Source: Campylobacteraceae bacterium (GTDB lineage: Bacteria; Campylobacterota; Campylobacteria; Campylobacterales; Sulfurovaceae). From it: a stretch of 64,000 nt of DNA. Below, one piece after another: positions 1 to 44,341 of the stretch (position 1 is its first letter; every line of letters begins with the position of its first letter). The position numbers and the translations under genes were made by a program. The notes below the pieces were generated by a model. The model was not told where the DNA came from and made no database searches. It saw nothing but the letters and a program-made list of their open reading frames with translations. The stretch is taken from the NCBI GenBank assembly GCA_027100635.1, contig JAMOOQ010000051.1, forward strand, positions 4,459 to 68,458, read 5' to 3'.

Positions 1-900
<900 letters not shown>

Positions 901-1025
901 TTATAAATTCAATGGCACTACCTTATTAAGTGTATATCAACTGTAATCATTACTTAGACTCTTAACAATGTTAAGTTTTTCTCAATACTGAGAGAATTAA
1001 GAACATATTGTGTTTTTAATTCTCT

Positions 1026-1142
1026 TAGTGGTGGGGCTAGAGAGAGGGAAATACCCAGATCCATTCCGAACCTGGAAGTCAAGCCTCTCATCGCCGATAA
1101 TACTGCACCTGTCTGGTGTGGAAATGTAGGTCGCTGCCACTT
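1026..1142 (+). rRNA. rrf: 5S rRNA
   Basis: About 117 nt, roughly 125 nt after the 23S end. Contains the 5S-typical 'ccattccgaacctggaagtcaagc' and 'gccgataatactg' segments. Terminal helix 'agtgg...ccact'. Confidence 0.9.
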
Positions 1143-1330
1143 TGAGATTAACTTTTTATTTATCTTAAAACTTCAACAAACAAAATTAAAATTATTTTAC
1201 TTTACTTTATTATTACTAAATTTATTTTTTGTAGATTTATTAATATTAAATCAATATCTAAGCTAAGACTTGTTAATATAAAAAATTCTCCTTTATTCTA
1301 CAACACCTTAGCCAAAAAAACCCTAAATTA

Positions 1331-1885
1331 TCAAGCCACATCTCCATGAATAATCGAAAATGCAGATACTCTCCAAATTGCCTTATTAATTAAAATATTA
1401 TCCACTTTTTCTCCATATAATTTTAATACTTCTCTAGTATATTTCTCTGCTCTGAAGAGAGATTTAATATCATTTACACTATATTTTAAAAACTTGCTAT
1501 TTGTATGCAAACTATAGCTAATATTATTCATAAACATAGATAAATTCGCAAAATTATGCACTCTTCTTTTCTTAATATTCATAAAATCTTCTAGTCCAAA
1601 ATTCCAAATTATCATAATTTATCTCATCTCCATAAATTCTTTTTCTTCCTCTACTTTTTTGCTCTCCAGTGAATTTTAAATAGAGTTTTGAATTCTTCTG
1701 GTTTACTAATTGTACTTTCATATGCCAGTAAAATTATATTTTTGCCAAGTTTTGGTTTGATTATTTAATAATTCATGCTTAACCAATTCAGTTTCTTGTC
1801 AAAAAATCTCTCTATAGTTTTATAGCTAATGGCATCATTCCATTTTGATATTCCTAACATTGTGACCCTTCCAGTCATTGCTAGG
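1331..1885 (-). mobile_element. Degraded DDE transposase remnant (IS4-superfamily-like), internally deleted with stops
   Basis: Minus-strand translation gives 'MTGRVTMLGISKWNDAISYKTIERFFDKKLNW...IILLAYESTISKPEE'. After stops it gives 'IWNFGLEDFMNIKKRRVHNFANLSMFMNNIS'. From memory these resemble the N-terminal 'GRVTMLG.SRW..GGSYRT.QRFF' and C-terminal 'WGLEDFMNVK' blocks of a DDE transposase family. The catalytic core is missing. Confidence 0.5.
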
Positions 1886-1893
1886 ATTGGTCT

Positions 1894-2298
1894 CTAAGCT
1901 CCCCACTCTTTTACACCCTCTTCAAAATATATCATAACCTCTGTCACAAATTCATTTACACAAATCATACCAGCACAGTTATCTCTAAAAATCTCTCTAT
2001 TAGATAGGTATATTCTTAAAAAATAATCTATCATTTCAGGTTTTGTCATAGCTACCTCAAAATATATAGCTACAATCGCTCTAGTCTTCTCTTTTGTTGA
2101 TATATCTTTTTCATTAATTCTTTGTAACTCTTTGCCTAAATATGCAGATATAAATTTTATAATCTCTTCTGCTAAAATATCTTTAGATTTAAAGTAGTTA
2201 TACATATTCCCTACACTCATTTTAACTGAGATAGCAATATCTGGTATTGTAGTACTATAAAACCCCTTTGAAGCAAAAAGTTCTAAAGCACCTTGCAT
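1894..2298 (-). pseudogene. TetR-family regulator, C-terminally truncated (134 aa)
   Basis: Complete TetR helix-turn-helix 'ALELFASKGFYSTTIPDIAISVKMSVGNMYNYFKSKD'. The ORF stops where the transposase remnant begins. TetR proteins are usually about 190-200 aa. An in-frame TAA lies 6 codons upstream of the ATG. Confidence 0.55.
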
Positions 2299-2397
2299 TA
2301 TCTGCTCTTTTCTTTTTTACTTCTTATCTTCTCTTTTTGTTGACTATTGTATACTCCTTGATGGTAATTATACATCAAAAATCTTGATAATCAACCT

Positions 2398-2739
2398 CTA
2401 TACCATTTCAAGTTGCATAAGATAGATATCTTCTCCATCAATCACATCTAACTCCATAGCATCACAGTTTGGACAATTAAAAATCCCCATCTCTATTTCT
2501 GAAGTTATTTTACATTTTAAACATTTTATAGTAATTGGTTGTATATTGATTATAAACTCTGCATTTTTACATATAGATACCTCTTTGAAAGTATCAAATG
2601 CCACCTCTAAAAGATGAGGTTCAACACCACTCATTACACCAATTTTGACTACAACTTTTGTAATCTCCGTTGAGTTATTAACCCTTGCGTTCTCTTCACA
2701 ACTCTCTATTAATGATTGGACTATACTATATTCGTGCAT
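2398..2739 (-). CDS. hypA: Hydrogenase nickel-insertion protein HypA
   Basis: N-terminus 'MHEYSIVQSL', two CxxC pairs ('CLKC', 'CPNC'), 113 aa, located in the hyp cluster. Confidence 0.9.
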   Translation of the reverse strand: MHEYSIVQSLIESCEENARVNNSTEITKVVVKIGVMSGVEPHLLEVAFDTFKEVSICKNAEFIINIQPITIKCLKCKITSEIEMGIFNCPNCDAMELDVIDGEDIYLMQLEMV

Positions 2740-2748
2740 TTTGAATAC

Positions 2749-4392
2749 CTATTCATTTTTTACTTTATTATATACTTTTAATCTTGTTGGTGTCTTTGTT
2801 GGGCATATCTTCCAGACAAACTCTTCTCTTAGCTTATGAAAAGCTGAACTATCCTCCCAAAATTCTGGATACATTATTTTTATCTCTTCCTCTTTTAGTG
2901 CCTCTATTTTATCTCTATTTTCTTCTAAAAAATCCTGCTTATCCCAAATAAAATCATCATCAAAGCTACTCTTGGCAAATTGGTGTAACTCTTCATAATA
3001 GTTATTATGAGCAAAAACCTCATCAACCATTTTAATCTTTTTGGCATACTCTACTGAAATTGGCAAACACTCATTAAGTAATCTTTGAGCCTCTTTTTTA
3101 CCTACTCTTTTTGGCAGTATATATGTATGATACTCACTTCCACTAAGTCCTAAAGTTTTGTAGTGAGGATTTAGCACACCCCCATCTCTTGCTACTACAA
3201 AATCACATGCTAATCCCAAAAAGACTCCACCTGCCCCACCATTTTTAGCAAATGAGGCAATAGTGATAATCTCATCAGAGAATATAATAGATTTAATAAG
3301 GTCATTTATAGCATTGATATTTGCCCAACCATCTTCACCCTGTTTTTTACTATCTTCTAGGATATTTAAATGTATTCCATTAGAAAAAAAGTCATACCCA
3401 CCCATCAAAATTAATACTTTACATCTACTATTTAGATACTCAATAGCATATTTAAGTCTTATTGCTTGTGCTGTGCTAATTGCCCCATTGTGAAAATTAA
3501 ATTCAAGATAGGCAATATTATCTTTTATCTCTACAGCTGTTTCATAAAAAGTGTTATAGCTTTTATCAAACAGAAGAGATAACCTATCCTCTTTAGTCCC
3601 TTTTATCTTCTCTTTTAGTAGATAAGTAGCAGGAAGTTTAAATCCTCCCACCTCTTTTAGATGAGTAATCCATATAGCTCCATCAATGGTTGCCAAACAG
3701 ATAGCCCCATCTCTTTTTGCCAATATCTCTTTTGGCTCTCCTTTAAATTTATCCTCTTTCCAAGCACCATATAGATAACACTCAACCCCTAAAACATTAT
3801 CCAAAACCCCCTCAACCGAATCACTAGCATATATTTTTTTAATTATTTCATCTGTAATATCTTTTTGCCAATTAATAACTCTCATCTTTTGAGTAAATGG
3901 TTTATGGATAGGGTTTAATATTTGAGGGGTTGATATATTTTTCTCTATATTATAAAAAAGCTCATTGAGTGTAGAGATAGCTACTCTAATCATCTCTTGC
4001 CGATAGATAGAAGCCTTATAACTCTCTCGCATTTTAAAATTAGCACTAGCATAAATATCTCCACCATCATAAAGCCGATTTGCCTTTAACCAAACTCCAC
4101 CCCACTCTCTGACCTTATTAACAATAGCATAATCTAGGCTATAAGCTCCTCTATCTCCTATGGGTGCAGGATGAAATACAAAGGTTGGATAGTTTTCATA
4201 TATCTCTTTGGGGATGTAGCTTTTTAGGAATGGGCAGAGGATTAGTTGAGGGTTAAAAGCTTTTATCTCTTTTATAATTTGGGTTTTGTTTATAGCATAG
4301 ACTATATCTATTTTGTAGCCTCTATCCTTTAGAGTCGTGTGGACTGCTTGGGATAGGGAGTTGTAGGTTGTGATTAGGAGGGTTAGGGTCAT
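2749..4392 (-). CDS. hypX: HypX/HoxX-type hydrogenase maturation factor (formyltransferase-like N-domain plus crotonase-like C-domain)
   Basis: 547 aa. The N-terminal 'LILCPFLKSYIPKEIY...FVFHPAPIGDRGAYSLDYAI' resembles the HoxX transferase domain. The C-terminal 'GGAGGVFLGLACDFVVA' is an enoyl-CoA hydratase-like oxyanion motif. Lies between hypE and hypA. Confidence 0.8.
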   Translation of the reverse strand: MTLTLLITTYNSLSQAVHTTLKDRGYKIDIVYAINKTQIIKEIKAFNPQLILCPFLKSYIPKEIYENYPTFVFHPAPIGDRGAYSLDYAIVNKVREWGGVWLKANRLYDGGDIYASANFKMRESYKASIYRQEMIRVAISTLNELFYNIEKNISTPQILNPIHKPFTQKMRVINWQKDITDEIIKKIYASDSVEGVLDNVLGVECYLYGAWKEDKFKGEPKEILAKRDGAICLATIDGAIWITHLKEVGGFKLPATYLLKEKIKGTKEDRLSLLFDKSYNTFYETAVEIKDNIAYLEFNFHNGAISTAQAIRLKYAIEYLNSRCKVLILMGGYDFFSNGIHLNILEDSKKQGEDGWANINAINDLIKSIIFSDEIITIASFAKNGGAGGVFLGLACDFVVARDGGVLNPHYKTLGLSGSEYHTYILPKRVGKKEAQRLLNECLPISVEYAKKIKMVDEVFAHNNYYEELHQFAKSSFDDDFIWDKQDFLEENRDKIEALKEEEIKIMYPEFWEDSSAFHKLREEFVWKICPTKTPTRLKVYNKVKNE

Positions 4393-4411
4393 TTTATATC
4401 CTTATTATGTT

Positions 4412-4512
4412 GTAGGGTGCAATTCCTATTGCACCATTTTATGTTATATACACAAAAAATTATATTTTCTATAAAATCTAATCTAATTGGTGCGATAGCA
4501 ATCGCACCCTAC
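4412..4512. repeat. Pair of inverted GC-rich hairpin units between hypE and hypX
   Basis: 'gtagggtgcaattcctattgcacc' (4412-4435) and 'ggtgcgatagcaatcgcaccctac' (4489-4512) are reverse complements of each other at 21 of 24 positions. Each is itself an 8-bp stem hairpin. The right unit contains the hypE TAG stop. Confidence 0.7.
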
Positions 4513-5504
4513 TAACAAATCCTAGGCAACAACTCCCCAGTAGGTAAATCCAAAAACCTCTTAGTCCCCCAAGAACTCTTTAATATAACTTTACCTTTAT
4601 ACTCCATTGATACTCTTCCAATTATTGATGAGGTGTTATGGGTCTCTCTTAAAATTTCTAATGCTTTAACCTCATCACTCTTAGGAACTGCTAAAATAAA
4701 TGAACCCTCATTAGCTAAATCCATAGCCTCAAAGCCTAACATTTCGCAAATCCCTCTTACACTATCTTGAATTGGAATTTGCTCCTCTTCTACCTCTATA
4801 CATACATTAGATGCATTAGCCCACTCATTTAAAACAGCACTAACTCCACCTCTTGTAGCATCACGCATAGCGATTATCTCTATACCACTATCTATTAGAG
4901 CTTTAACTTGTGGATATAGAGATGTACAATCTGTTTTTAAATCACTTTCTAATTCAATCCCCTCTCTTGCTGAAAATATTGTAGCTCCGTGGCTTCCAAT
5001 ATCTCGGTTTACCAAGATACTCATATCATCTTTTAAATTACTAGCACTAATTCCACTATACTCTATCTCTCCAATGCCTGTGGTGTTTATAAAAAGCTTA
5101 TCAACTGCACCTTTTGGCACTACTTTAGTATCTCCACTGACAACTATAGCCCCATTAATCTCTAGCTCTTTTTTCATACTTCTTACTATTTTTTCAAGCT
5201 CACGAGTAGAAAAGCCCTCTTCTATGATAACACTACAAGTTAAATATTTTGGTTTTGCTCCCATCATAGCTAAATCATTACAAGTGCCACAGATAGAGAG
5301 TTTACCAATATCTCCACCACTAAAAAAGAGAGGGCTTACTGTAAAGCTATCTGTTGAAAAAGCTAGTTTCCCATCTTCTATTACTGCACTATCTTCACTC
5401 TTTTGTAAAATATCATTTTTAAAGTGTTTGTAGAATATCTTAGATATTAACTCATTATTCTCTTGTCCACCATTTCCGTGGGCTAGGGTTATTGTTTTAT
5501 TCAT
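4512..5504 (-). CDS. hypE: Hydrogenase maturation carbamoyl dehydratase HypE
   Basis: 'ITLAHGNGG' N-terminus, AIR-synthase-like fold motifs, and the diagnostic C-terminal 'PRIC'. Confidence 0.95.
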   Translation of the reverse strand: MNKTITLAHGNGGQENNELISKIFYKHFKNDILQKSEDSAVIEDGKLAFSTDSFTVSPLFFSGGDIGKLSICGTCNDLAMMGAKPKYLTCSVIIEEGFSTRELEKIVRSMKKELEINGAIVVSGDTKVVPKGAVDKLFINTTGIGEIEYSGISASNLKDDMSILVNRDIGSHGATIFSAREGIELESDLKTDCTSLYPQVKALIDSGIEIIAMRDATRGGVSAVLNEWANASNVCIEVEEEQIPIQDSVRGICEMLGFEAMDLANEGSFILAVPKSDEVKALEILRETHNTSSIIGRVSMEYKGKVILKSSWGTKRFLDLPTGELLPRIC

Positions 5505-7252
5505 TGTTGCTCCTCATATAAAATTCCAAAATCTTTCAAAGAATTACGTCCTAATCCATAATATCCAGAAGCATAATTCTTTGCCTTATTTTCAATATAT
5601 TTCCAAAACTCATCACTTTTCATTATCTTTTGAAGTTCTAATAATTCTTCTTTTGAAGAATAAGCACACATACCATTATAAAAATATAAATTTTCATCTT
5701 CACTATAAAAAGTTTTAAATCCTTTTCTAACTAATTGAGGGAAAAAAAGTTTCTCTTTTCTCTTTTCTAAAGATTGACTACGACCAAAAGCATACCAGTC
5801 AGGATATTTCCCTTTTCCTTTATCTCTTAATGCTAATATTTCTTTTTTAGATAATAGATATTTATAAGCTTTTGGATATTTTTTTTTAAATATTTCTTGT
5901 TCTATAAAAACTGCTTGATTAATTTTATTATGTCTATATGGGAATATAATTTTTTCTACTAAACTTTCTAAATTATCATATTTAGCTAATTTATTACTAT
6001 TAATAATATTTTTACAAATACTTTTTTCTATGGCTGTATTTTCATCAATATAATAATATTTTCTATCAGGTTTATTTATTGGTTTAAAAATATATATACT
6101 ATTTTTAAGTGTAGCTATACCACTCTTCGTATCATATATTTCTCCAAAAAGTTTTCCTCTAGCTTCTATTTCTTGAATAAAGTCATTATCTTTTAAACTC
6201 CAACCATTATGAGAATTTAAATTAGCATAATTTTCTTTATTAAAATATATTTGAGTAAGAGGCTCTAAATTATTTTGTTTACTCATAGCATATAATATAT
6301 TTTTACTCTCTATATTCTCAATAAAACAGAGACAAGTATAGGTCAAACGCGATGTAAATATTTGTTCATCTCCAAAATCTATAATCGTTAATTTAACTTT
6401 TTTTTCTTCAAAATATTTACGAATAGCCCGACCATTAACACTATGAATAAAAGTATTCACCGTAATAAAGCCCAAAATTCCTTTAGATTTTAAAAGTTCA
6501 AGTCCTATCTGAAAAAAAGGTATATATAAATCAGGATGTCCTGTTTTGCAAGTAGTCCAATTTTTCATTAATACTTTTGTCTTATCATCCATATTACGAG
6601 AACAGACATAAGGAGGATTACCCAAAATCATATCAAATTCAATCTCTCCCCAGTCAAACTTTAGTGTATCTCCTACATATATATTAAATTCAAAATTCTC
6701 TTTATCTTCACCCTCTGTAATGGCTAAGAGTGATAAAAGTATTTTAGTTCGATCCACACTATAAGATTGAATATCCACACCATAAATATTCTCTTTAAAT
6801 ATTTTTTTATACGATTTACCCGTTTTAGATTTTAACTCTCTAGTTGCATCAATTAAAAATCCACCACAACCACAGGCTATATCTGCAACTTTAATATTAA
6901 TTATAGATTTTTTATTCAATAACTCAAATGATTGCTTAGTAATATACTCTCTTATATTTTTAGGTGTATAAATAGCACCATTGATAAGTTTATCAGATGG
7001 GGAGATAACAAATTCAAAGAGTTCTAGGAGTTCTTCAAAACCCAAAAAATAGTTATTTATTCTTAATATTTCTATAAATTCTAAGAGGCTTACATATTCA
7101 AGTGTATCTTTTTGAATAATTAAACTTTTTATTTTTTTATTTTTAATATTAGTAATATTTTTTTCTAATAAGAAGGCAGATACAATTAATCTATTAATAT
7201 CATATTCATTAGTTCCATACTCTTTTAAAAAATTTAAGATTTCTTTGTTCAA
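5501..7252 (-). CDS. Gamma-class N6-adenine DNA methyltransferase (Eco57I/TaqI-like), no adjacent nuclease
   Basis: SAM motif I 'VADIACGCGGFL' and catalytic motif IV 'GNPPY', followed by a long C-terminal region consistent with a TaqI-like target-recognition domain. TTG start. The stop overlaps the hypE start (ATGA). Confidence 0.85.
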   Translation of the reverse strand: MNKEILNFLKEYGTNEYDINRLIVSAFLLEKNITNIKNKKIKSLIIQKDTLEYVSLLEFIEILRINNYFLGFEELLELFEFVISPSDKLINGAIYTPKNIREYITKQSFELLNKKSIINIKVADIACGCGGFLIDATRELKSKTGKSYKKIFKENIYGVDIQSYSVDRTKILLSLLAITEGEDKENFEFNIYVGDTLKFDWGEIEFDMILGNPPYVCSRNMDDKTKVLMKNWTTCKTGHPDLYIPFFQIGLELLKSKGILGFITVNTFIHSVNGRAIRKYFEEKKVKLTIIDFGDEQIFTSRLTYTCLCFIENIESKNILYAMSKQNNLEPLTQIYFNKENYANLNSHNGWSLKDNDFIQEIEARGKLFGEIYDTKSGIATLKNSIYIFKPINKPDRKYYYIDENTAIEKSICKNIINSNKLAKYDNLESLVEKIIFPYRHNKINQAVFIEQEIFKKKYPKAYKYLLSKKEILALRDKGKGKYPDWYAFGRSQSLEKRKEKLFFPQLVRKGFKTFYSEDENLYFYNGMCAYSSKEELLELQKIMKSDEFWKYIENKAKNYASGYYGLGRNSLKDFGILYEEQQ

Positions 7253-34653: not shown

Positions 34654-35095
34654 GTTATTAATAATATCTATAGCATCTCCTATACAACTAGGTATTTATA
34701 AAGATAATATTTTGATAGATAGTGTTCAAAGTGATAAAAAAACATCAGAGATACTCCTTCCTCTCATTGTGGATATGTTAGATAAATATTCAATTAAAAA
34801 TATTCTTTATGTAAGAGGACCTGGTAGTTATATGGCTATCAAATTAACATATATTATACTTAAAACAATTAAGATTATAAGAGATATTGATTTTTATGGG
34901 TGTGATGGATTTTTATTTAATAATAATAGACCTATTAAAGCTTTAGGTTCTTTATATTTTATAAAAGACAATAAAAATATTATTACAAAAAAATTTAATA
35001 ATATAGAAAAAATAGATTTTATACTCCCCTTAAATTTAAATAGTGTAACTATAGATAAAGATAATAGACCATTATATATATTACCTGCAGTCTAA
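34628..35095 (+). CDS. tsaB: TsaB-like (short form) tRNA t6A protein
   Basis: 'RGPGSYMAIKLTYIILKT' resembles the TsaB 'GPGSFTGLRIG' motif. Start uncertain, because the ORF overlaps lpxC by 26 nt. Confidence 0.55.
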   Translation: MKKVSHDYKLLIISIASPIQLGIYKDNILIDSVQSDKKTSEILLPLIVDMLDKYSIKNILYVRGPGSYMAIKLTYIILKTIKIIRDIDFYGCDGFLFNNNRPIKALGSLYFIKDNKNIITKKFNNIEKIDFILPLNLNSVTIDKDNRPLYILPAV

Positions 35096-35129
35096 TCAAA
35101 TTTTAATGGATTACAAAGAGTAAAAAAGG

Positions 35130-35135
35130 TATAAT
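35130..35135 (+). promoter_or_regulatory. Candidate -10 element (TATAAT)
   Basis: 'aaaaggTATAAT' 33 nt before the ATG at 35168. Confidence 0.3.
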
Positions 35136-35167
35136 ATTTATCAATTTAAAAATAGGAAATATCACAA

Positions 35168-36073
35168 ATGCTAAAAAAAGGATTTTTATATCTTATTGCA
35201 TCTATCTTTATAAGTGGAGCTTTAAATGCAACAGATACAAATAGTACGATAACAAAATTAAAAGATGCCAAAGTGGTTATATCTATAAATGATAATAATT
35301 ATACGAGTAAAGATTTTCCATTAGAATTTAATAAGCTTAGCGATAATAAAAAATATAGTTTTTTAGTGATATATTCAAACTATAGGGTAACGCTAGATAG
35401 TTTAAAAGATGAGCAAAAAAGTTTACAAGTAGATATAGATGCTTTAATTAAAAAAAGAGATGATAAAAATAAAAGAGTTGGTATAGAAAAATCAAAGCTT
35501 AAAGAAGTAATATCTAATCTAAGATTAACGCTAGATACTATAGCGTATAAAGAGGTAGAAAAGAATTATCCAAAGATAAAAGAAGAAGTAGAATCTTTTT
35601 TTAAAGAGCATGAAAAAGATTATAACTATCCAAATTATGTAGAAGTTTCATTTATAAGAGTAAAAGATGAAAATTTATCTAAAGAGATTATATCAAAAAT
35701 AAATTTATCTAAAAATCAAGACAAATTAAAAGTGTTTATAGAGGAATCTAAACGGTATAAATCTAAAAAAGATAAAGATTTAACTTATATGGGTGCAATT
35801 ACTTCTAAAAATAAGAAATATGGTAAAGAGTTCTTTGATAAATTATGGGAATCAGATGAAAATAATATTTTAAATAAAGCTATTAAAAAAGATAATCTTT
35901 ATTATATTGTATATATACATAAAAAAGAGAAATCAGGTACTAGCTCATTTGACTTTGTAAAAGATGATATAAAAAAATATTTACTAAAAGCTAAACGCAT
36001 TAGATGGATTAAAAATAGATATAAAGATATTAAAAAAGATAGTAAAGTTATAATTTATAACAATAATTTATAG
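35168..36073 (+). CDS. Secreted protein, possibly a degenerate SurA/parvulin-like chaperone
   Basis: Signal peptide. The C-terminal half loosely follows a parvulin pattern ('VEVSFIRVKDE...YMGAIT...YYIVYIHKK'). Weak call. Confidence 0.35.
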   Translation: MLKKGFLYLIASIFISGALNATDTNSTITKLKDAKVVISINDNNYTSKDFPLEFNKLSDNKKYSFLVIYSNYRVTLDSLKDEQKSLQVDIDALIKKRDDKNKRVGIEKSKLKEVISNLRLTLDTIAYKEVEKNYPKIKEEVESFFKEHEKDYNYPNYVEVSFIRVKDENLSKEIISKINLSKNQDKLKVFIEESKRYKSKKDKDLTYMGAITSKNKKYGKEFFDKLWESDENNILNKAIKKDNLYYIVYIHKKEKSGTSSFDFVKDDIKKYLLKAKRIRWIKNRYKDIKKDSKVIIYNNNL

Positions 36074-36086
36074 TTAAAGGAAAGAT

Positions 36087-36968
36087 TTGTTAATTAGTGT
36101 ACCTGCAACAAGTGCAAACTTAGGACCTGGCTTTGATAGTTTAGGTCTAGCAATTGATTTAAAAAATGAGATTATTATTACTCCATCAAAATTTTTGAGT
36201 CTCTCTACTACAGGAGAGGGAGCTAAGAATCCAAAGATTAAAAAGAATACACTATTTTTAAATATATTTTATGAAAATTATAAGAGATTAACATCAAGAA
36301 ATGATAATTTTAGATTTGAATTTATAAATTATATACCAATATCAAGAGGTTTAGGTAGCTCTTCTGCCGTTATTGTAGCTTCAATTACAGCAGCTTATAC
36401 AGCCTCTGGAACAAAATATAATAAAAAAGATATTTTAAACTTGGCACTTAAATATGAAAGTCATCCTGATAATATTACTCCTGCTGTAATGGGTGGATTT
36501 AATGTGGCATGTGTTGATAATAATAAAGTTTATAGCAAAAAAAGACGATTACCTGATTATCTAAGAGCAGTATTGGTTATCCCTGATAAAACTATATCAA
36601 CAGCGAAATCAAGAACTATTTTGCCAAACTCATATAAAGCGGAAGAAACGATATATTCATTATCAAGATCAGCCTTTATGACATCTGTATTTATGACAGA
36701 ATCTTGGGATCTTCTTCGTGTTGCGTCAAAAGATAAGCTTCATCAAACGAGAAGAATGAAGGTAATACCTGAACTTTTTGAGGTTCAAAAAATAGCACTT
36801 ACAAATGGGGCGTTAATGAGTACTCTTTCTGGTAGTGGATCTACATTTTTTACACTTTGTCATAAAGAAGATAGTGGTAACATTCACTCAAAACTTGCTA
36901 AAAGATTCCCAAAATTTAGAGTTATGACAAAGTTATTAGATAATTATGGAGTAACAACAAAGAGTTAA
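36087..36968 (+). CDS. thrB: Homoserine kinase
   Basis: '[17 protein letters not shown]' and the GHMP motif 'SRGLGSSSA'. TTG start. Confidence 0.9.
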
Positions 36969-36989
36969 ACTCTTTTAAGGTATAATATT

Positions 36990-37235
36990 GTGCAAAACTA
37001 TAAACCTATAAGAATGTGTATATCATGTCGTAACAGAAATTATCAAAAAGATATGCTTAGATTAAAAATATTAGATGATAACAGAGTCATTGTGTATGAT
37101 AATTGTGGAAGAAGTTTTTATATATGTGATGAGTGTGTTAAAGATAAAAAAAAGGTAAAAGGTTTAACGAAGCGTTTTAAACAAGATGAAGAGCGTTTTC
37201 TTAAGTTTTTAAAGGAGCAATTAAAGAATGAATAA
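36990..37235 (+). CDS. ylxR: YlxR/DUF448 RNA-binding protein
   Basis: 'RMCISCRNR...GRSFYIC' pattern, immediately upstream of and overlapping infB. Confidence 0.8.
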   Translation: MQNYKPIRMCISCRNRNYQKDMLRLKILDDNRVIVYDNCGRSFYICDECVKDKKKVKGLTKRFKQDEERFLKFLKEQLKNE

Positions 37236-39813
37236 AGTTAAAATCCTAGAAATAGCTGCTGAGGCAGGGAAATCTAATGCAGTTTTATTAGCAAAGGCTA
37301 AGGAGTTAGGTTTTGATGTAAAAGTTGCAAATAGCACTATTAGCTTAGAACAAGCAGATATTTTAGTAAACTATGCAATTGATGGTAAATTACCTGACGG
37401 ATTTAAAAAACCTGTTAAGAAATCAAAAATAACTGTAAGTAAAAAAATTAAAGTTGAGTTAAAGCCTGTTGAAAAAGAGGTAAAAGTAGAAGATAAAGAG
37501 GTTTCTAAAGAGGAAGCTAAAAAAACTGTGGTTGAAAAATCAGGTGAAACTACTGAGAAAACTAAAGAAGTAGAGAATAAGCCTAAGAAGTTAGGTATTA
37601 GAAAAAAATCTTTATCTCGTGGTGGAATTACAATTGTAAGAAAAGCAAAACCAAAACCTTCAAGAGATCTTTATGGCAGATCAAGTGATAGAAAAGGTCT
37701 TTCTTTACCAAAAAATAGTATTCCATCTGTTGCAAAAAAGAAAAAGCCTAAAAAAGGTGCAACTGCTAAAGATACTGGTACAAAATTAGATCTTATTGGT
37801 GGAGGTGGTTTTGGAACTGGTGTTGAACTATTTGCAGAACAAGAGGTAGTATTACTGGATTTCTCTGATAAGAATATATATGAAGATATGAAAAAACAAG
37901 AGCAAAAGAGAAAAGAAGAGGCTAAGAAAAGAAATCTTGGAGCAACAAATAATAGATTTGGTGGTAATAATTATAATAGAAAAAGAAGCATCAAAAGAGG
38001 TAGTAATAAAAAGAAAAACTATAATAAAGTAGAAGAAAATGTTGTAGTTAGCTCTATTGAAATTCCAGAAGATGTAAGAGTATATGAATTTGCAGAAAAA
38101 GTTGGTAGAAATGTAGGTGAAGTTATTAAAGTTTTATTTACTTTAGGAACAATGGTTACAAAAAATGGATTCTTAGATAAAGATGATATTGAGATTTTAG
38201 CAGAAGAGTTTGAGGTTGAAGTAACAACTATTAATCCACTTGATAAATTAGATTATACTGCTTCTTATGATGCAGAAGAGATAGCAGAAGAAGATTTAGA
38301 AGAGAGACCACCGGTTGTAACAATTATGGGTCATGTTGATCATGGTAAAACGTCACTTTTAGATAAAATTCGTTCAACAAAAGTTGTGGATAAAGAAGCA
38401 GGTGGTATTACTCAGCATGTTGGAGCTTATCAAGTAACAAAAAATGATAAAAAAATAACATTTATTGATACTCCAGGACATGCTGCCTTTACAGAGATGA
38501 GAGCAAGAGGAACACAGGCAACTGATATTGTAATTATTGTTATTGCTGCTGATGATGGGATTAAACCACAAACAAAAGAGGCAATTTCTCATGCAAAAGC
38601 TGCAAAAGTGCCAGTTATTGTTGCTATCACAAAAATAGATAAAGAATCAGCTAATATTGATATGGTTAAATCTCAATTATCAGAACATGATCTTTTAACT
38701 GTTGATTGGGGTGGAGAGATTGAATCAGCAAATGTATCTTCTCATACAGGGGAAGGACTTGATGATTTGCTTGATATTATTTTAATCCAAGCAGAATTAA
38801 TGGAGCTTAAAGCTTCTCCTAATAGAAAAGCAAAAGCTATTGTAATTGAGAGTTCTTTAGAGAAAGGATTTGGACCAGTTGCAAATGTTATTATTAAAGA
38901 TGGAACTTTAAAAGTTGGTGATAATATTATTGTGGGGACAACTTATGGTCGTGTTAGAACATTAGTTAATGATCATGGAATAAATGTTAAATCAATCGGA
39001 CCTAGTACTCCTGCATCTGTTATGGGATTAAATGAAGTACCAACTGCTGGTGAGATTATGTTATCTATGGAAGTTGAAAAAGAGATTAAAGAGTTAGCAC
39101 AAGCAAGAGCTGATCATGCAAGAGCAAAAGAGTTATCAAAAAGTACAAAAGCTACTCTTGATGATCTTTCATCTTTAATTGCAGAGGGGCAACTTAAATC
39201 ATTACCTATTATCATTAAGACTGATGTTCAAGGTTCTTTAGAAGCGATTAAAGGAAGTTTGAAAAAACTTAGAAATGAAGAGGTAAAAGTTAATATTATC
39301 CATGAAGGTGTGGGTGGTGTTACAGAAAGTGATGTTGCTTTAGCAGATGCTAGTGAACATGCTGTTATCTTAGGATTTAATGTTCGTCCAACAGGAAGTG
39401 TTAAAAAACGAGCAAAAGAACTTAATGTTGAGATTAAATCGTACTCTATTATTTATGAACTTATTGATGATGTTAAAGCTTTTTTAAGTGGAATGATGAG
39501 TCCTATTGTTTCAGAAGAGGTAACAGGTCAAGCAGAAGTAAGAGAAACATTTACAGTTGATAAAGTTGGTACAATTGCTGGATGTAAAGTAACTGATGGT
39601 AGCATTATTAGAGGTGGAGGAGCAAGACTTATCCGTGATGGTATTGTTATTTATGAAAGTACAATTAGCTCTCTAAAAAGATTTAATGATGATGCAAAAG
39701 AAGTTAAAAATGGTTATGAATGTGGTATTATGATTGCTAACTTTAATGATATAAAAGTTGGTGACTTTATTGAAACATTTAAAGAAGTAGAAGAACAAGC
39801 TAAGCTTGATTAA
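37228..39813 (+). CDS. infB: Translation initiation factor IF-2
   Basis: Lys-rich N-terminus and G domain 'GHVDHGKTSLLD', 'DTPGH', 'TKID'. 861 aa. Confidence 0.97.
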   Translation: MNKVKILEIAAEAGKSNAVLLAKAKELGFDVKVANSTISLEQADILVNYAIDGKLPDGFKKPVKKSKITVSKKIKVELKPVEKEVKVEDKEVSKEEAKKTVVEKSGETTEKTKEVENKPKKLGIRKKSLSRGGITIVRKAKPKPSRDLYGRSSDRKGLSLPKNSIPSVAKKKKPKKGATAKDTGTKLDLIGGGGFGTGVELFAEQEVVLLDFSDKNIYEDMKKQEQKRKEEAKKRNLGATNNRFGGNNYNRKRSIKRGSNKKKNYNKVEENVVVSSIEIPEDVRVYEFAEKVGRNVGEVIKVLFTLGTMVTKNGFLDKDDIEILAEEFEVEVTTINPLDKLDYTASYDAEEIAEEDLEERPPVVTIMGHVDHGKTSLLDKIRSTKVVDKEAGGITQHVGAYQVTKNDKKITFIDTPGHAAFTEMRARGTQATDIVIIVIAADDGIKPQTKEAISHAKAAKVPVIVAITKIDKESANIDMVKSQLSEHDLLTVDWGGEIESANVSSHTGEGLDDLLDIILIQAELMELKASPNRKAKAIVIESSLEKGFGPVANVIIKDGTLKVGDNIIVGTTYGRVRTLVNDHGINVKSIGPSTPASVMGLNEVPTAGEIMLSMEVEKEIKELAQARADHARAKELSKSTKATLDDLSSLIAEGQLKSLPIIIKTDVQGSLEAIKGSLKKLRNEEVKVNIIHEGVGGVTESDVALADASEHAVILGFNVRPTGSVKKRAKELNVEIKSYSIIYELIDDVKAFLSGMMSPIVSEEVTGQAEVRETFTVDKVGTIAGCKVTDGSIIRGGGARLIRDGIVIYESTISSLKRFNDDAKEVKNGYECGIMIANFNDIKVGDFIETFKEVEEQAKLD

Positions 39814-39838
39814 TTTTTTATAGGTAAAAGGGAATAGT

Positions 39839-40867
39839 ATGTCAAACTGTAAAAAAATAGCATTTTTTAATCATAAAGGTGGAGTTAGCAAGACAACAAC
39901 AGTATTTAATCTTGGTTGGATGTTGGCTTCTAAAGGTAAGAAAGTTATTATGATTGATGCTGATTCCCAATGTAACTTAACTGGTATGGTTATGGGTTTT
40001 AAAGGATTAGATGAGTTGTCTGATAATAAAAATAATATTAAAGATGCATTATCTTATGCTTTTGAATCTGTGCCTAGAGTTATTGAACCTGTAGAGTGTT
40101 TTGAGATAGATAATAGAAAAAATTTATATTTAATGCCTGGAAATATAAAATTTGCAGAGTATGATATTACTTTAGGAATGGCTCAAACTCTTTCAGATAC
40201 AATGATTACTTTACAAAATTTACCTGGGGCAATTAATTATCTTTTAGATAAAACAGCTAAAAAATATGATGCTGATTATATTTTAATAGATATGAGTCCT
40301 TCACTTAGTTCTATTAATCAAAATTTGTTTATGATTAGTGACTATTTTACAATTCCTACAGCACCAGATTATTTTTCTGTAATGGCATTAGAATCGTTAT
40401 CAAATATTTTACCAAAATGGTATAAGCAATCATTAAAATTACAAAATAATGAGATATTACAAGATGCTGTATATAAATTTCCAAATAAAACTCCAAAGTT
40501 TTTAGGTAATATTATTCAACAATTTAATGTTAGAAATAATCAACCCACTAGAGGTTTTAAAAAATGGTTTGATAAAATTAATGAGTACACAAATGATAAA
40601 TTTATACCAGCATTAAAAAAAGAATCTATGTTATTAGATAGTAGTTATTATATTGATAAAAATTATATTTTATCAGAAATAAAAAATTTTAATAGTTTAA
40701 TAACTTATGCACAAGAGCATAATAAACCAGTATTTGCACTAACAAAAGATAACTTAGGACAATCAGGTCATATTTTAACAAGTTCAGAAGGAAGTATCGA
40801 AAATTTTAGAGAACTTTTTTCTAATTTAGCAGATAATATTATGAGAATGACAGATGATAAATGCTAA
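39839..40867 (+). CDS. ParA/Soj/MinD-superfamily ATPase (deviant Walker A)
   Basis: 'IAFFNHKGGVSKTTTVFNLG' (KGGxxK[ST]), 'IMIDADSQCNLT', Walker B 'YILIDMSP'. Has an extra ~130-aa C-terminal extension. Confidence 0.8.
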   Translation: MSNCKKIAFFNHKGGVSKTTTVFNLGWMLASKGKKVIMIDADSQCNLTGMVMGFKGLDELSDNKNNIKDALSYAFESVPRVIEPVECFEIDNRKNLYLMPGNIKFAEYDITLGMAQTLSDTMITLQNLPGAINYLLDKTAKKYDADYILIDMSPSLSSINQNLFMISDYFTIPTAPDYFSVMALESLSNILPKWYKQSLKLQNNEILQDAVYKFPNKTPKFLGNIIQQFNVRNNQPTRGFKKWFDKINEYTNDKFIPALKKESMLLDSSYYIDKNYILSEIKNFNSLITYAQEHNKPVFALTKDNLGQSGHILTSSEGSIENFRELFSNLADNIMRMTDDKC

Positions 40868-41465
40868 ACAACATTTTGAACAAAATATTATAAGAGTTAA
40901 AAGCTTAGGAGCAATTTATCAAAGTATAAATTCACAAACTATACAAATCCTAGATTTAAGTGATATCTTAAGGGCTCAATATGTAATGTTAGTTAGTGCT
41001 TTAGATCATTTTATACATGAAGTTGTTAGAATTGGAATGATTGAGATATATAATAATAAGCGAAAAGCTACAAAAAATTTTAAAGTTTTTGTATTTAATT
41101 TAGATAAAGAGATTTTATTTAAAAAAGCTATTATGGAAGAGAAAAATGATAATTGGTTAGATTATCAAATAAGATATAAAAATGGTTTTAAAAGTTTTCA
41201 AGAAGCAGATAAAATAAAAGAGGCTATGTTTTTAATTATTGAAACTGATATATGGGAAGATATAGATAAAAATATTATAAATTCAAAACAGTACCTAAAT
41301 TTAATAGTAAAAAGAAGAAATCAGATAGCACATGAAGCTGATATTGAACCAATAAATCAAGAGTTACGAGATATACATTTAGATGATATAAAGAATTCAA
41401 TTGAATTTATAGAAGATTTAGTTAAAATAATATATAAAGTAGTGAGTAAAAAATATGACAAATGA
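40854..41465 (+). CDS. HEPN-like protein (Rx4H motif)
   Basis: All-helical-looking 203-aa protein with 'VKRRNQIAHEAD' (R-x4-H) near the C-terminus. Overlaps the ParA-like gene by 14 nt and rbfA by 11 nt. Confidence 0.55.
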   Translation: MINAKQHFEQNIIRVKSLGAIYQSINSQTIQILDLSDILRAQYVMLVSALDHFIHEVVRIGMIEIYNNKRKATKNFKVFVFNLDKEILFKKAIMEEKNDNWLDYQIRYKNGFKSFQEADKIKEAMFLIIETDIWEDIDKNIINSKQYLNLIVKRRNQIAHEADIEPINQELRDIHLDDIKNSIEFIEDLVKIIYKVVSKKYDK

Positions 41466-41829
41466 ACAGATAAAAAGAAAAAGAGTTGAATCTGTTTTAA
41501 GAGAGATTCTTCCTGAGGCCTTAAGTGGTCTTAGTGATAGCAGAATCAACTCTCTTTTAGTTACAGAGGTTGTATGTTCAAAGGGTAGAAGCAATGCTAA
41601 AGTATATTTAGATAAAGCTTTTATGGATGAACAAGAGCAAAATGAAGCTCTTAGACAACTAAGAAAAGTTGGTGCATATCTTCAAAATCATTGTAAACAG
41701 AGTGAGGGTTGGTTTAAAGCTCCTATTTTTACATTTGAATTTGATGATCAATTAGCACATCAAACAAAAATGGATAATTTATTTAAAAAAATAAGTCAAA
41801 AAAATCCAATTGATAAAATGGAGCAATAA
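41455..41829 (+). CDS. rbfA: Ribosome-binding factor A
   Basis: 'RKRVESVLREILPEAL...VTEVVCSKGRSNAKVYL', 124 aa. Confidence 0.9.
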   Translation: MTNEQIKRKRVESVLREILPEALSGLSDSRINSLLVTEVVCSKGRSNAKVYLDKAFMDEQEQNEALRQLRKVGAYLQNHCKQSEGWFKAPIFTFEFDDQLAHQTKMDNLFKKISQKNPIDKMEQ

Positions 41830-42260
41830 TGAATCTTGAAGCTGAAATAGAAAAAATTGTTAAAGCAAATGATGCAAATTTTTATGATACAGAGATTGTT
41901 ACAGAAGAAGATGGTACAATATTTAGAATTTATATCACTCAAGAAGGTGGTATAAGCTTAGATACTTGTGCTAAAATTTCAAGAGAATTATCTCCATTTT
42001 TAGATGTATATCCACCAATGAGTAACCATTATAGATTAGAGGTAAGTTCTCCAGGGATTGAAAGAAAACTTATAAAATTATCTCATTTTAAATCTGCAAT
42101 TGGTGAAAAAGTGAAAACAAGAGTTTTAGGTATTGGAAAAGTAAAAGGTATACTTAAAATTGCTGATAAAGATAGTTTTGTTCTTGAAACTAAAAATGGT
42201 GAAGAGAGATTTAAGTATAGTGATTTAGGAACAACTAAAACTTACTATGAATGGAACTGA
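41829..42260 (+). CDS. rimP: Ribosome maturation factor RimP
   Basis: 'RLEVSSPGIERKL' motif, 143 aa. Confidence 0.85.
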   Translation: MNLEAEIEKIVKANDANFYDTEIVTEEDGTIFRIYITQEGGISLDTCAKISRELSPFLDVYPPMSNHYRLEVSSPGIERKLIKLSHFKSAIGEKVKTRVLGIGKVKGILKIADKDSFVLETKNGEERFKYSDLGTTKTYYEWN

Positions 42261-43263
42261 TGATAACTTTTTAATGAATTTAGCCATTAACAAAGCGTGG
42301 CAATTTCAAGGATTAACTTATCCAAATCCTGCTGTTGGTGCAGTACTTATAGATTCTAATGGTAAGATTTTATCAATAGAGGCTCATCAAAAAGCTGGAA
42401 CTTCTCATGCAGAGGTTTTAGCATTAATCAAAGCATATCAAGAGATAACAAGTTCTTTAGTAGATATAGATATATTTGATGCAAATATCACACATAAATT
42501 TTTATTAGATAATGCAAAAGATATATTTTGTGAATGTACTATTTTTGTTACACTAGAACCATGCTCACATCATGGTAAAACTCCATCTTGTGCCTCACTC
42601 TTATCTATCTTAAATATTAAAAAAGTTGTAATTGCTACACTTGACCCAATAAAACCTCATAGTGGTGGAATTGATATTTTAAAACAAAAAAATATTCAAG
42701 TTAAAATAGGGGTTGAAGAGCAAAAAGCAAAAGATTTAATTGAACCTTTTAGAATATGGCAAGACCGTGCTTTTATAATTTTTAAAATAGCTCAGACAAC
42801 TAATGGTAAAATTGGTGGTGGATATTTAAGCTCAAAAGAATCTTTAATTCATACTCATAAACTTAGAAATATTTGTGATAAAATGCTTATCGGTGGAAAT
42901 ACGGTTAGAGTTGATAGACCAACTCTTGATTGTAGATATATTAAACAACCAGCCCCTAATCTTTATATATATTCAAAACAAGATAACTTTAGTAAAGATA
43001 TCCCACTTTTTAATATAAAAAATAGAGAGGTTAGAATAGGTGATAATTTAGATTTTTTAGATAAACCATCATTTATTTTAGTTGAAGGTGGAAGTGGAAT
43101 GATTAATGCAATAAAAGATAAAATAGATTGGCTTTTAATCTATCAAACTCCAAAACTATCAACTAATATATTAAATTATAATGTTGATATAGAATTAGAA
43201 TTTTTAAAATATCAAGAATTATCAGTAGATTTAATAAACTGGTGTAGAGTTATTAAAGAGTAA
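42247..43263 (+). CDS. ribD: Riboflavin biosynthesis deaminase/reductase
   Basis: Deaminase zinc motifs 'HAEVLAL' and 'PCSHHGKTPSC', plus a reductase C-domain. Confidence 0.9.
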   Translation: MNGTDDNFLMNLAINKAWQFQGLTYPNPAVGAVLIDSNGKILSIEAHQKAGTSHAEVLALIKAYQEITSSLVDIDIFDANITHKFLLDNAKDIFCECTIFVTLEPCSHHGKTPSCASLLSILNIKKVVIATLDPIKPHSGGIDILKQKNIQVKIGVEEQKAKDLIEPFRIWQDRAFIIFKIAQTTNGKIGGGYLSSKESLIHTHKLRNICDKMLIGGNTVRVDRPTLDCRYIKQPAPNLYIYSKQDNFSKDIPLFNIKNREVRIGDNLDFLDKPSFILVEGGSGMINAIKDKIDWLLIYQTPKLSTNILNYNVDIELEFLKYQELSVDLINWCRVIKE

Positions 43264-43306
43264 TAGATTATAATATAAAAAATAAAATTAAGAAAGAGAG
43301 AATAAT

Positions 43307-44341
43307 ATGAGAAAATATAATATAGCCGTAGTAGGTGCAACAGGAGCTGTTGGAGAAGAGCTTTTTGAGGTCTTAAAACAAAGAGATTTCCCTGTTGCAA
43401 GTTTATTACCACTAGCGAGTAAAAGTAGTGCTGGTAAATTAATAGAGTTTAATGGGATACAATATAAAATAGAGGAACTTACAGAAGATGTTTTTATAGA
43501 TAGAGATATTGATATAGCATTTTTTAGTGCAGGGGGAAGTATCTCTGCTAAATTTGCAAAATATGCTGTTGAGAGTGGAGCAGTTGTGATTGATAATACT
43601 AGTCACTTTAGAATGATGGATAATATTCCTCTTGTAGTTCCAGAGGTTAATCCAGAAGATATTGCCCATTGGGAAGAGACTGGAATTATCGCTAATCCAA
43701 ACTGTTCAACTATCCAAATGGTTCAATTATTAAAGCCTTTGCATGATCTGTATGGTATTAAAAGAGTTGATGTTAGCACATATCAAGCAACTTCTGGAGC
43801 AGGGAAAGCAGGGATGCAAGAGCTTGTTAAGCAGATGGAAGAGTTTTTTAATTTTAAATTAGACCAAACTAAAGTTGAAGCATTTTCTCATCAAATTGCA
43901 CTTAATGTTATTCCCCATATTGATACTCCACAAGAAAATGGTTATACAAAAGAGGAGATGAAAATGGTAAATGAAACAGCTAAAATTATGCACTCTGATT
44001 TTGCAGTTTCAGCAACTTGTGTAAGAGTTCCAGTATTGCGAAGTCATTCTGAGTCAATAACAATACATTTTGGTGATGATATTGTAGTTGATGTAGATAA
44101 AGCAAGAGAGGTGTTAGATAATTTTGAAAATGTGACTTTAATGGATGATTTAGCAAATAATCAATATCCAATGCCAATAACTTCTACAGATACGGATGAA
44201 ACTTATGTTGGAAGAGTTAGAAAAGATATATTTGCAGATAATATATTGCATATTTGGGGTGTTGCTGATCAAATAAGAGTAGGCGCTGCAACTAATTCAA
44301 TTAGAATTGCAGAAAAATGGATAAAGTTAGAGGATATATAA
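43307..44341 (+). CDS. asd: Aspartate-semialdehyde dehydrogenase
   Basis: 'VVGATGAVG', 'NPNCSTI', 'SGAG'. Confidence 0.95.
   Translation: MRKYNIAVVGATGAVGEELFEVLKQRDFPVASLLPLASKSSAGKLIEFNGIQYKIEELTEDVFIDRDIDIAFFSAGGSISAKFAKYAVESGAVVIDNTSHFRMMDNIPLVVPEVNPEDIAHWEETGIIANPNCSTIQMVQLLKPLHDLYGIKRVDVSTYQATSGAGKAGMQELVKQMEEFFNFKLDQTKVEAFSHQIALNVIPHIDTPQENGYTKEEMKMVNETAKIMHSDFAVSATCVRVPVLRSHSESITIHFGDDIVVDVDKAREVLDNFENVTLMDDLANNQYPMPITSTDTDETYVGRVRKDIFADNILHIWGVADQIRVGAATNSIRIAEKWIKLEDI

Follow-up and report, generated by a model that had tools for sequence, protein, structure and literature searches.

What are an ATPase gene and a gene for a HEPN domain protein doing inside an operon that serves translation and ribosome maturation? 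The question is raised by a stretch of 64,000 nucleotides (nt) from a Campylobacteraceae bacterium (Sulfurovaceae; assembly GCA_027100635.1, contig JAMOOQ010000051.1, positions 4,459 to 68,458), which we refer to as the window and in which this gene pair separates infB from rbfA. An original prediction, made from the letters alone, had proposed either a toxin or abortive-infection module or an RNA-processing factor embedded in the operon. Our analysis favors the first of these. We consider it probable that the pair is a mobile conflict module, composed of a ParA/Soj-type ATPase and a HEPN protein of family PF18735, and that it is the same as, or the immediate sister of, the ParA/Soj plus HEPN dyad (MAE_18760 family) that Anantharaman, Makarova, Burroughs, Koonin and Aravind predicted in 2013 to be a novel toxin–antitoxin system (PMC3710099). 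The kind of module is known from that prediction, and the window pair is most probably a further example of it. The reading as a mobile conflict module, rather than a ribosome-maturation factor, rests on the obligate pairing of the two genes, their mobility, their co-divergence, the selection acting on them and the variety of their contexts.

The first part of the answer comes from sites where the pair is missing. A scan for RbfA, with one genome per species, gave 46 loci from Sulfurovum, Nitratifractor and other Campylobacterota metagenome-assembled genomes, 45 of which hold both infB and rbfA. In all 45 the two genes either overlap by 4 nt or sit at most 125 nt apart, and the ATPase and HEPN genes are absent from the junction; the possibility, left open by the original prediction, that the pair occupies this position throughout the order does not agree with this pattern. 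L013, from an uncultured Sulfurovum, is the closest relative: its RbfA is 95%, its IF-2 C-terminus 98% and its nucleotide sequence 91% identical to those of the window. In blastn, its positions 1-4742 correspond to 35071-39803 of the window and its positions 4741-6548 to 41450-43257 (91% identity), so that homology stops at 39803 and restarts at 41450, leaving an insert of 1,646 base pairs (bp). The empty site in L013 reads GAACAAGCTAAAATATGACAAG, with the TGA of infB overlapping the ATG of rbfA. To the right of the insert, the former junction of infB and rbfA (AAAATATGACAA) survives unaltered, with the old infB end and the rbfA start, which shows that the difference is an insertion in the window and not a deletion in the relative. 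Vertical inheritance with loss in the relatives was likewise rejected, as the relative's original infB end, AAAATATGA, persists to the right of the insert. Assembly chimerism was rejected too, since both junctions are common to six loci from five samples (JGI/NCBI, ENA and Logan assemblies) that have the same infB/ATPase/HEPN/rbfA layout; in this count, JGI and NCBI both list one of the contigs, and the window corresponds to the JGI metagenome contig Ga0256838_1000094. Judged from these alignments, the gene pair is a true insertion, in keeping with the first description of the two genes as extra, and it was acquired horizontally.

The junctions give some indication of how this cassette arrived. 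On the left, the insertion altered the 3' end of infB, which reads AAG CTT GAT TAA (...AKLD-stop) in the window and ...AKI-stop in L013. Since the new ending (GCTTGATTAA, 39804-13) matches the native ...LD-stop ends of infB in a different Sulfurovum clade, to which L042 and L070 belong, it suggests that the cassette came on donor DNA already carrying it directly after infB. On the right, the start codon of rbfA now lies within the 3' end of the HEPN gene, whose last codons (YDK-stop) are read from the 5' sequence of the host rbfA. Terminal inverted or direct repeats of the insert were looked for in the window and gave AT-rich chance matches only, and no recombinase gene accompanies the insert there. 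The GC content of the cassette is 22-26%, compared with about 30-32% in the flanking infB and rbfA, while GC at third codon positions (GC3) is equal (0.11-0.15); the difference in GC therefore lies in amino-acid usage. As a sign of foreign origin, base composition is weak evidence, since GC3 matches that of the flanking genes; by the same figures, the DNA probably came from another AT-rich genome within the Campylobacterota.

The leader of the ATPase gene is 25 nt long and carries an AAGGG ribosome-binding site, the sole leader feature kept among the cassette copies, and it is too short for a promoter of its own. Having no promoter of its own, the cassette in the window is presumably transcribed by read-through from the infB operon. 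A scan for promoters and terminators gave counts equal to those of shuffled controls, and an Rfam scan of 36900-43400 returned a single chance snoRNA match (E 0.89), with no structured RNA accompanying the insert. The left junction is spanned by a perfect 13-nt palindrome, CAAGCTAAGCTTG (39796-39808), followed by a T-run, and this hairpin was not above chance in the shuffled-control scan. As an observation on the site itself, longer inverted repeats cross the infB stop (GTAAAATTAGA…TCTAATTTTAC) in some relatives, such as L035 (460-500) and L038, and are followed by a GC-rich hairpin. Taken with the junction palindrome, these repeats suggest that a structured element or an attenuator is conserved at the infB–rbfA junction of this group.

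The second part of the answer is that the two genes behave as one unit. Among 86 loci with a HEPN homologue, 82 have upstream DNA, and in every one of them the ATPase gene lies directly upstream; the remaining four end within 160 nt of a contig end, and orphan HEPN genes were not found (0/82). The two open reading frames (ORFs) overlap or sit at most 28 nt apart in 63 of 63 loci, with an overlap in 40 of them. Across loci, identities fall to 28% for the HEPN protein and to about 40% for the ATPase, and the two co-vary closely (Pearson 0.96, n=63). In five comparisons, the ratio of nonsynonymous to synonymous substitution rates (dN/dS) was 0.10-0.21 for the ATPase and 0.19-0.28 for the HEPN protein, indicating purifying selection on both. 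With these ratios and hundreds to thousands of homologues each, the two ORFs are genuine genes, not reading frames that arise by chance where the genome is rich in AT. In the window, the ORF coordinates, the overlaps (14 nt between the ATPase and HEPN genes, 11 nt between the HEPN gene and rbfA) and the motifs KGGVSKTT (K13-T20), DADSQCNLT (D40-T48), LIDMSP (L149-P154) and RRNQIAHEAD (R154-D163) are exactly those given by the original prediction.

The third part is that the unit moves. The nearest relatives of the cassette (86% and 80% HEPN identity) occupy sites between uvrD and DUF2400-thrS-infC and between valS and ilvD, and the DNA that they have in common with the window consists of the two genes and a 14-nt leader (window 39825-41440). 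A Sulfuricurvum copy shares its locus with MqsA, AAA_15/21 and restriction–modification genes, and a copy in Aliarcobacter butzleri adjoins Zot and secretin genes. Elsewhere the neighbors include a JetC-like SMC, SIR2-STAND, RhuM, SMEK-NACHT, HicAB, a large serine recombinase and a group II intron; in one locus (L114) an Abi_2 gene lies directly upstream of the cassette, and one type of neighborhood combines Abi_2 with a Type ISP restriction enzyme. The HEPN protein also matches the phage family phrog_13503 (3.7e-29). In Pf-type filamentous phages, the pair occupies the accessory region beside the integrase and attachment (att) site: Pseudomonas inovirus WX-TY (L147, PV296014.1) carries it at 2676-4308, and in a Pf1-type prophage (L148, AY324828.1) the ATPase is annotated as Orf317, 'putative regulatory protein, similar to Soj' (ParA), and is followed near the att site by a HEPN ORF (4001-4495) that bears no annotation. 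Pf5 has been described as having a unique ParA-domain gene without an assigned function (PMC7379572). Plasmids carry the pair as well: it occurs on 12 from Burkholderia glumae, the majority typed as conjugative (MOBF), near an IS5 element and an H-NS gene; on pBIN_1 (L149, NZ_CP009433.1, 4970-6609) it is annotated as 'AAA family ATPase' and 'HEPN domain-containing protein'. A thirteenth Burkholderia plasmid, from B. arboris, has a putative, unannotated match. When viral contigs of IMG/VR were scanned with the HEPN alignment, no copy was found; the pattern used (I[VI]xRRNQIA) would miss the RRNSIVH variant of INPHARED phages. The family ranges over Campylobacterota, cyanobacteria, Pf-type filamentous phages and conjugative Burkholderia plasmids. 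From comparison of these loci, the pair is shown to be strictly linked, translationally coupled, inherited as a unit, selected and mobile.

One further context may be mentioned. In L146 (6654-11050; a 6.15-Mb genome), the cassette has downstream of it a gene for an SNF2-family helicase and one for a very large protein that contains a sacsin (SACS) domain, which is another HEPN-associated architecture.

The upstream partner was originally described as a deviant-Walker-A, ParA-like ATPase, and this identification is borne out by its Pfam AAA_31 match and by its predicted structure. Its Walker A motif lies at 39875-39898, with K13 and K18 as signature lysines, D40/D42 as switch or Walker A' aspartates and D151 as Walker B, and FNHKGGVSKTT, D40/D42 and D151 are invariant in 31 homologues. 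A model of the protein (predicted local distance difference test, pLDDT, 85; predicted template modeling score, pTM, 0.88) matched Soj, ParA and McdA in Foldseek at E ~1e-12 (Soj 2bek, 2.9e-12; ParA 8ray; McdA 6non), with a template modeling (TM) score of ~0.75 over the target. The nearest solved relative is DIP2308 (3pg5), with a TMq of 0.62-0.67 in Foldseek and a PDB sequence match of 4.7e-24. The 'long C-terminal extension' of the original description holds in part: there are about 90 extra residues, in insertions and C-terminal helices, but they do not form a separate domain. Since the alignments to the ParA fold span the whole protein, the extension is an elaboration of that fold. A scan with PADLOC-DB v2 returned for the ATPase just a 40-residue P-loop match to PDC-M28B. 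Apart from the catalytic residues, C45 (in the DxDxQCNL switch) and C87 are invariant across the 31 homologues, and the Campylobacterota copies share a C-terminal cysteine (C342 in the window); by analogy with NifH or Get3-type relatives, a metal or redox role for these cysteines is conceivable.

For the downstream partner, the HEPN identity that had been suggested by the motif is upheld by a profile search. The protein is a full-length member of PF18735 (63.3 bits against a gathering cut-off of 28.4; E 3.6e-17; profile positions 3-189 of 191), and we propose that it serves as the endoribonuclease effector or toxin. The sister family PF18737 (MAE_28990/MAE_18760-like) gave 19 bits, under its cut-off of 26.8. 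Within the homologue set, PF18735 was matched by 27 of 27 proteins and PF18737 also by 9 of 27 (E <= 0.01). The arginine and histidine of the motif, R155 and H160, are invariant in these 27 homologues, which reach down to 24% identity, and so are R154, N156, I158 and D163, as well as R40, S48, D51 and H55 on an earlier helix. The motif has the Rx4-6H form with a polar residue after the arginine (N156 follows R155, then x3-H160); phage and plasmid copies carry RRNSIVH or RRNAIVH instead. The AlphaFold model is all-helical (pLDDT 88.4, pTM 0.87), and its top Foldseek matches are HepT toxins (6m6w, 5yep, 7bxo, 7ae6), not significant at a best E of 0.45 and a TM score of ~0.5. A PDB search with the HEPN profile gave as its best match the RN..H stretch of the antiviral protein Ec1Ap, also not significant (E 0.32), and the protein has no Pfam Abi_2 match. 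An exhaustive profile search gave 2,409 cluster representatives at E <= 0.001, of which 1,354 at E <= 1e-10. The 150 best-scoring ones are standalone, with lengths that run from 155 to 254 residues and mostly lie near 200. The window protein is standalone as well, without L-PSP fusion, and ParB was not seen in any annotated cassette neighborhood. The features of the locus and the repeats discussed below are collected in Table 1.

Table 1. Positions of the host genes, the cassette and its junctions in the window, and of direct repeats around cassettes at other loci (identified by L numbers)
Feature	Position	Strand	Remarks
ParA/Soj-type deviant-Walker-A ATPase, 342 aa	39839-40867	+	Pfam AAA_31 1.3e-33, CbiA
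HEPN domain protein, 203 aa	40854-41465	+	Pfam PF18735 (RiboL-PSP-HEPN)
HEPN catalytic-type motif RRNQIAHEAD (R154-D163; Rx4H = R155...H160)	41313-41342	+	homologue alignment
Inserted DNA, ~1646 bp, two cassette genes and short junctions only	39804-41449	+	blastn against empty site of L013
Left junction and leader	39796-39838	+	sequence comparison
infB (IF-2), upstream host gene	37228-39813	+	Pfam IF-2, GTP_EFTU, IF2_N
rbfA, downstream host gene	41455-41829	+	Pfam RBFA 7.1e-17
rimP	41829-42260	+	Pfam RimP
Direct repeats, 51 nt	L011:4917-4967 / 6613-6664
Direct repeats, 24 nt	L062:170 / 1886
Direct repeats, 16 nt	L065:111 / 1784
Direct repeats, 24 nt	L079:642 / 2572

How might such a pair work? 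HEPN domains are metal-independent endoribonucleases that act as dimers, with their Rx4-6H motifs at the dimer interface, and ParA-type ATPases are ATP-dependent dimerization switches. From what is common to these families, the HEPN protein would dimerize, and R155, N156 and H160 would cleave RNA without metal ions, leading to growth arrest. The ATPase would form ATP-dependent sandwich dimers through its signature lysine K13, and in its resting nucleotide state it would keep the RNase inactive, acting as the antitoxin. The RNase could then be freed by a drop in the supply of the ATPase or of ATP, or by a cue from a phage or another mobile element, and the outcome would be abortive infection, post-segregational stabilization of the cassette carrier, or both. 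In this scheme we follow the 2013 prediction, whose architecture and logic are the same.

Several points weigh against this picture of a toxin–antitoxin dyad. The ATPase is always more conserved than the HEPN protein (63 loci), which is unusual for an antitoxin. Many cassette contexts are plain metabolic or housekeeping operons and not defense islands. The support for the HEPN fold from structural and PDB comparison is qualitative, given the non-significant scores above, and no PADLOC or NCBIfam model matches the HEPN protein informatively. Strict equivalence to MAE_18760 is unproven, with the PF18737 score lying below its cut-off. Our literature searches returned the 2013 prediction alone and no experimental study of the ParA/Soj–HEPN pair, in line with the original description of the system as predicted but experimentally uncharacterized. 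Finally, the sequence is equally compatible with an ATPase that neutralizes the RNase and with one that activates it.

The last point opens the way to the rival that survives best, which we regard as possible, if less than likely: a sensor–effector abortive-infection system, in which the HEPN protein is inert by itself and the ParA-type ATPase is a sensor that switches the RNase on. For example, ATP-dependent dimerization of the ATPase on invading DNA or on a phage protein could join two HEPN protomers. The greater conservation of the ATPase, with its catalytic residues all invariant, is what one would expect of a working enzyme or sensor, and the pair is tolerated inside highly expressed essential operons. 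Defense-island neighborhoods are frequent, and it is established that the ATP dimers of ParA-family proteins bind DNA (5u1j and 8jmj are among the fold matches). However, the ATPase has no recognizable extra sensor domain, and the regulator-first, overlapping gene order and the lack of orphan HEPN genes fit neutralization equally well; the sequence does not tell the two modes apart.

A different proposal concerns not what the cassette does but where it settles. Besides the window (compare 39804-41449), two metagenome contigs, L066 (5989-7648) and L070 (4155-5680), carry the cassette between infB and rbfA. They belong to a different Sulfurovum clade, with an RbfA ~58% identical to that of the window; their breakpoints are unlike those of the window, and the HEPN stop overlaps a TTG or GTG start of rbfA. 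Their closest genome relatives (L040 and L047) have empty infB-rbfA sites. With the site occupied in three lineages, with other breakpoints in L066 and L070 and with empty relatives, we read the infB–rbfA junction either as a site at which integration recurs or as an island that passes from one lineage to another; the position of the cassette in a translation operon reflects tolerated and repeated insertion and is not a sign of a role in ribosome biogenesis. More generally, at least five contexts (window 41455-41465; L139:4331-4338; L141:4631; L007:6618-6621; and the HEPN end of L067) show the stop of the HEPN gene overlapping the start of a co-directional housekeeping gene that follows it. 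The overlapped genes are rbfA, DUF2400, ilvD and an mqnB-like PNP_UDP_1 gene, and the host sequence at each site supplies the C-terminal tail of the HEPN protein, which is variable. In four other contexts, locus-specific direct repeats of 16-51 nt bracket the cassette (Table 1), and those of L011 and L062 hold an extended −10 promoter (TGTGTATAAT, GATATAAT). Repeats so variable in length are not what a transposase-type target duplication would leave, and no known transposition mechanism yields them.

It is tempting to speculate that the cassette is a promoter-less and recombinase-less mobile unit that hitch-hikes in essential, highly expressed operons, notably those of translation factors and aminoacyl-tRNA synthetases, as a strategy of positional addiction in which its stop overlaps the start of the next gene. 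The three infB–rbfA lineages with different breakpoints, the copies between valS and ilvD, between uvrD and DUF2400-thrS-infC and between thrS and a tsaD-like gene, the stop/start overlaps, and the promoter-duplicating repeats elsewhere all led us to this idea, to which we give little credence at present. If it were true, expression of the cassette would be slaved to an operon of the translation apparatus, imprecise loss would damage an essential gene, and the HEPN RNase might be coupled to the translational state of the cell.

Less probable again is a partition cassette, with the ATPase as motor and the small helical protein encoded downstream as an adaptor or ParB substitute that stabilizes the replicative forms of inoviruses and plasmids, the chromosomal copies being remnants. 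The order of the genes is the classical one of parA followed by a small partner, the ATPase matches phrog_164, 'ParA-like partition protein', and the pair does occur on plasmids and Pf phages. Nonetheless, the partner carries an invariant RRNxxxH and a significant HEPN family match, and most copies sit singly in a chromosome, where there is no replicon for them to partition. Purifying selection acts on both genes in their chromosomal setting, and no centromere-like repeat array flanks the cassette. As for the RNA-processing alternative of the original prediction, a housekeeping factor recruited to the infB–rbfA–rimP operon, the coupling of the co-directional pair to rbfA in the window, the filled sites in L066 and L070 and the copies beside thrS, valS, infC or tsaD-like genes might seem to speak for it, but the phyletic pattern (a site empty in 45 of 45 relatives, including one 91% identical, the nearest homologues at unrelated loci, and a family spread over defense islands, phages and plasmids across phyla) already largely refutes it and makes it very improbable.

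The interpretation as a mobile conflict module has some practical consequences. If it works as proposed, the system would be of the toxin–antitoxin or abortive-infection type, with a ParA-family ATP switch placed over a HEPN RNase. The module is widespread, to judge from the 1,354 cluster representatives at the stricter threshold, yet it is absent from the 2023 PADLOC defense catalogue. Its copies in the Pf phages of Pseudomonas aeruginosa are genetically tractable and bear on prophage stability and on phage–phage exclusion in a pathogen. For annotation, the pair in the window should be treated as an accessory insertion and not as a new component of a ribosome-maturation operon.

Compared with known systems, the ATPase shares with Soj, ParA, ParF and McdA the deviant Walker A with its signature lysine, the Walker A' aspartates, the Walker B and the fold, but differs from them in its ~90 extra residues; the uncharacterized DIP2308 (3pg5) also has extra C-terminal elements. 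In contrast to partition ATPases, it has no ParB or centromere partner (its neighbors are infB and rbfA, with no repeat arrays) and is paired with an RNase-type protein. With AbiD/AbiF (Abi_2) the module shares its defense-island contexts, but the Abi_2 genes are single, while here the ATPase partner is obligatory. A parallel in layout is MntA–HepT (MNT–HEPN), where the gene for a small HEPN RNase toxin likewise follows that of a nucleotide-using enzyme, which controls the toxin, and HepT structures head the (non-significant) Foldseek list for our model. The partner here, however, is a ParA-type P-loop ATPase and not a minimal nucleotidyltransferase, and the window HEPN protein is ~70 residues longer than HepT. 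MntA reportedly AMPylates the tyrosine of the Rx4HxY motif of HepT, according to work from 2020. The window motif, RRNQIAHEAD, has no tyrosine two residues after H160, and because this acceptor is missing, neutralization by tyrosine AMPylation is unlikely.

The best match is with the predictions of the 2013 survey, although not with the entry first suggested. The original prediction had named RiboL-PSP as the family linked to ParA/Soj; Table 1 of the survey instead lists 'operon with ParB' for RiboL-PSP and assigns the ParA/Soj dyad to MAE_18760 (PMC3710099). The survey also gives a fusion with L-PSP for RiboL-PSP and describes RiboL-PSP-HEPN as distantly related to AbiF/AbiD. Neither of the RiboL-PSP contexts was seen here. 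Our pair differs from the dyad in that its HEPN protein is above cut-off on PF18735 only. In Microcoleus, in L146 and in Anabaena, the ATPases are ~53% identical and each is followed by an overlapping PF18735 gene. Our results as a whole indicate that the PF18735-type HEPNs are the ParA-linked HEPNs and that the PF18735 and PF18737 families grade into each other. The module and the dyad agree in several respects: each is a two-gene operon in which a ParA/Soj ATPase of the SIMIBI class precedes a standalone Rx4-6H HEPN protein, both are mobile and present in bacteria including cyanobacteria, and an Anabaena homologue labeled at its source as 'MAE_28990/MAE_18760 family' has the same ATPase upstream.

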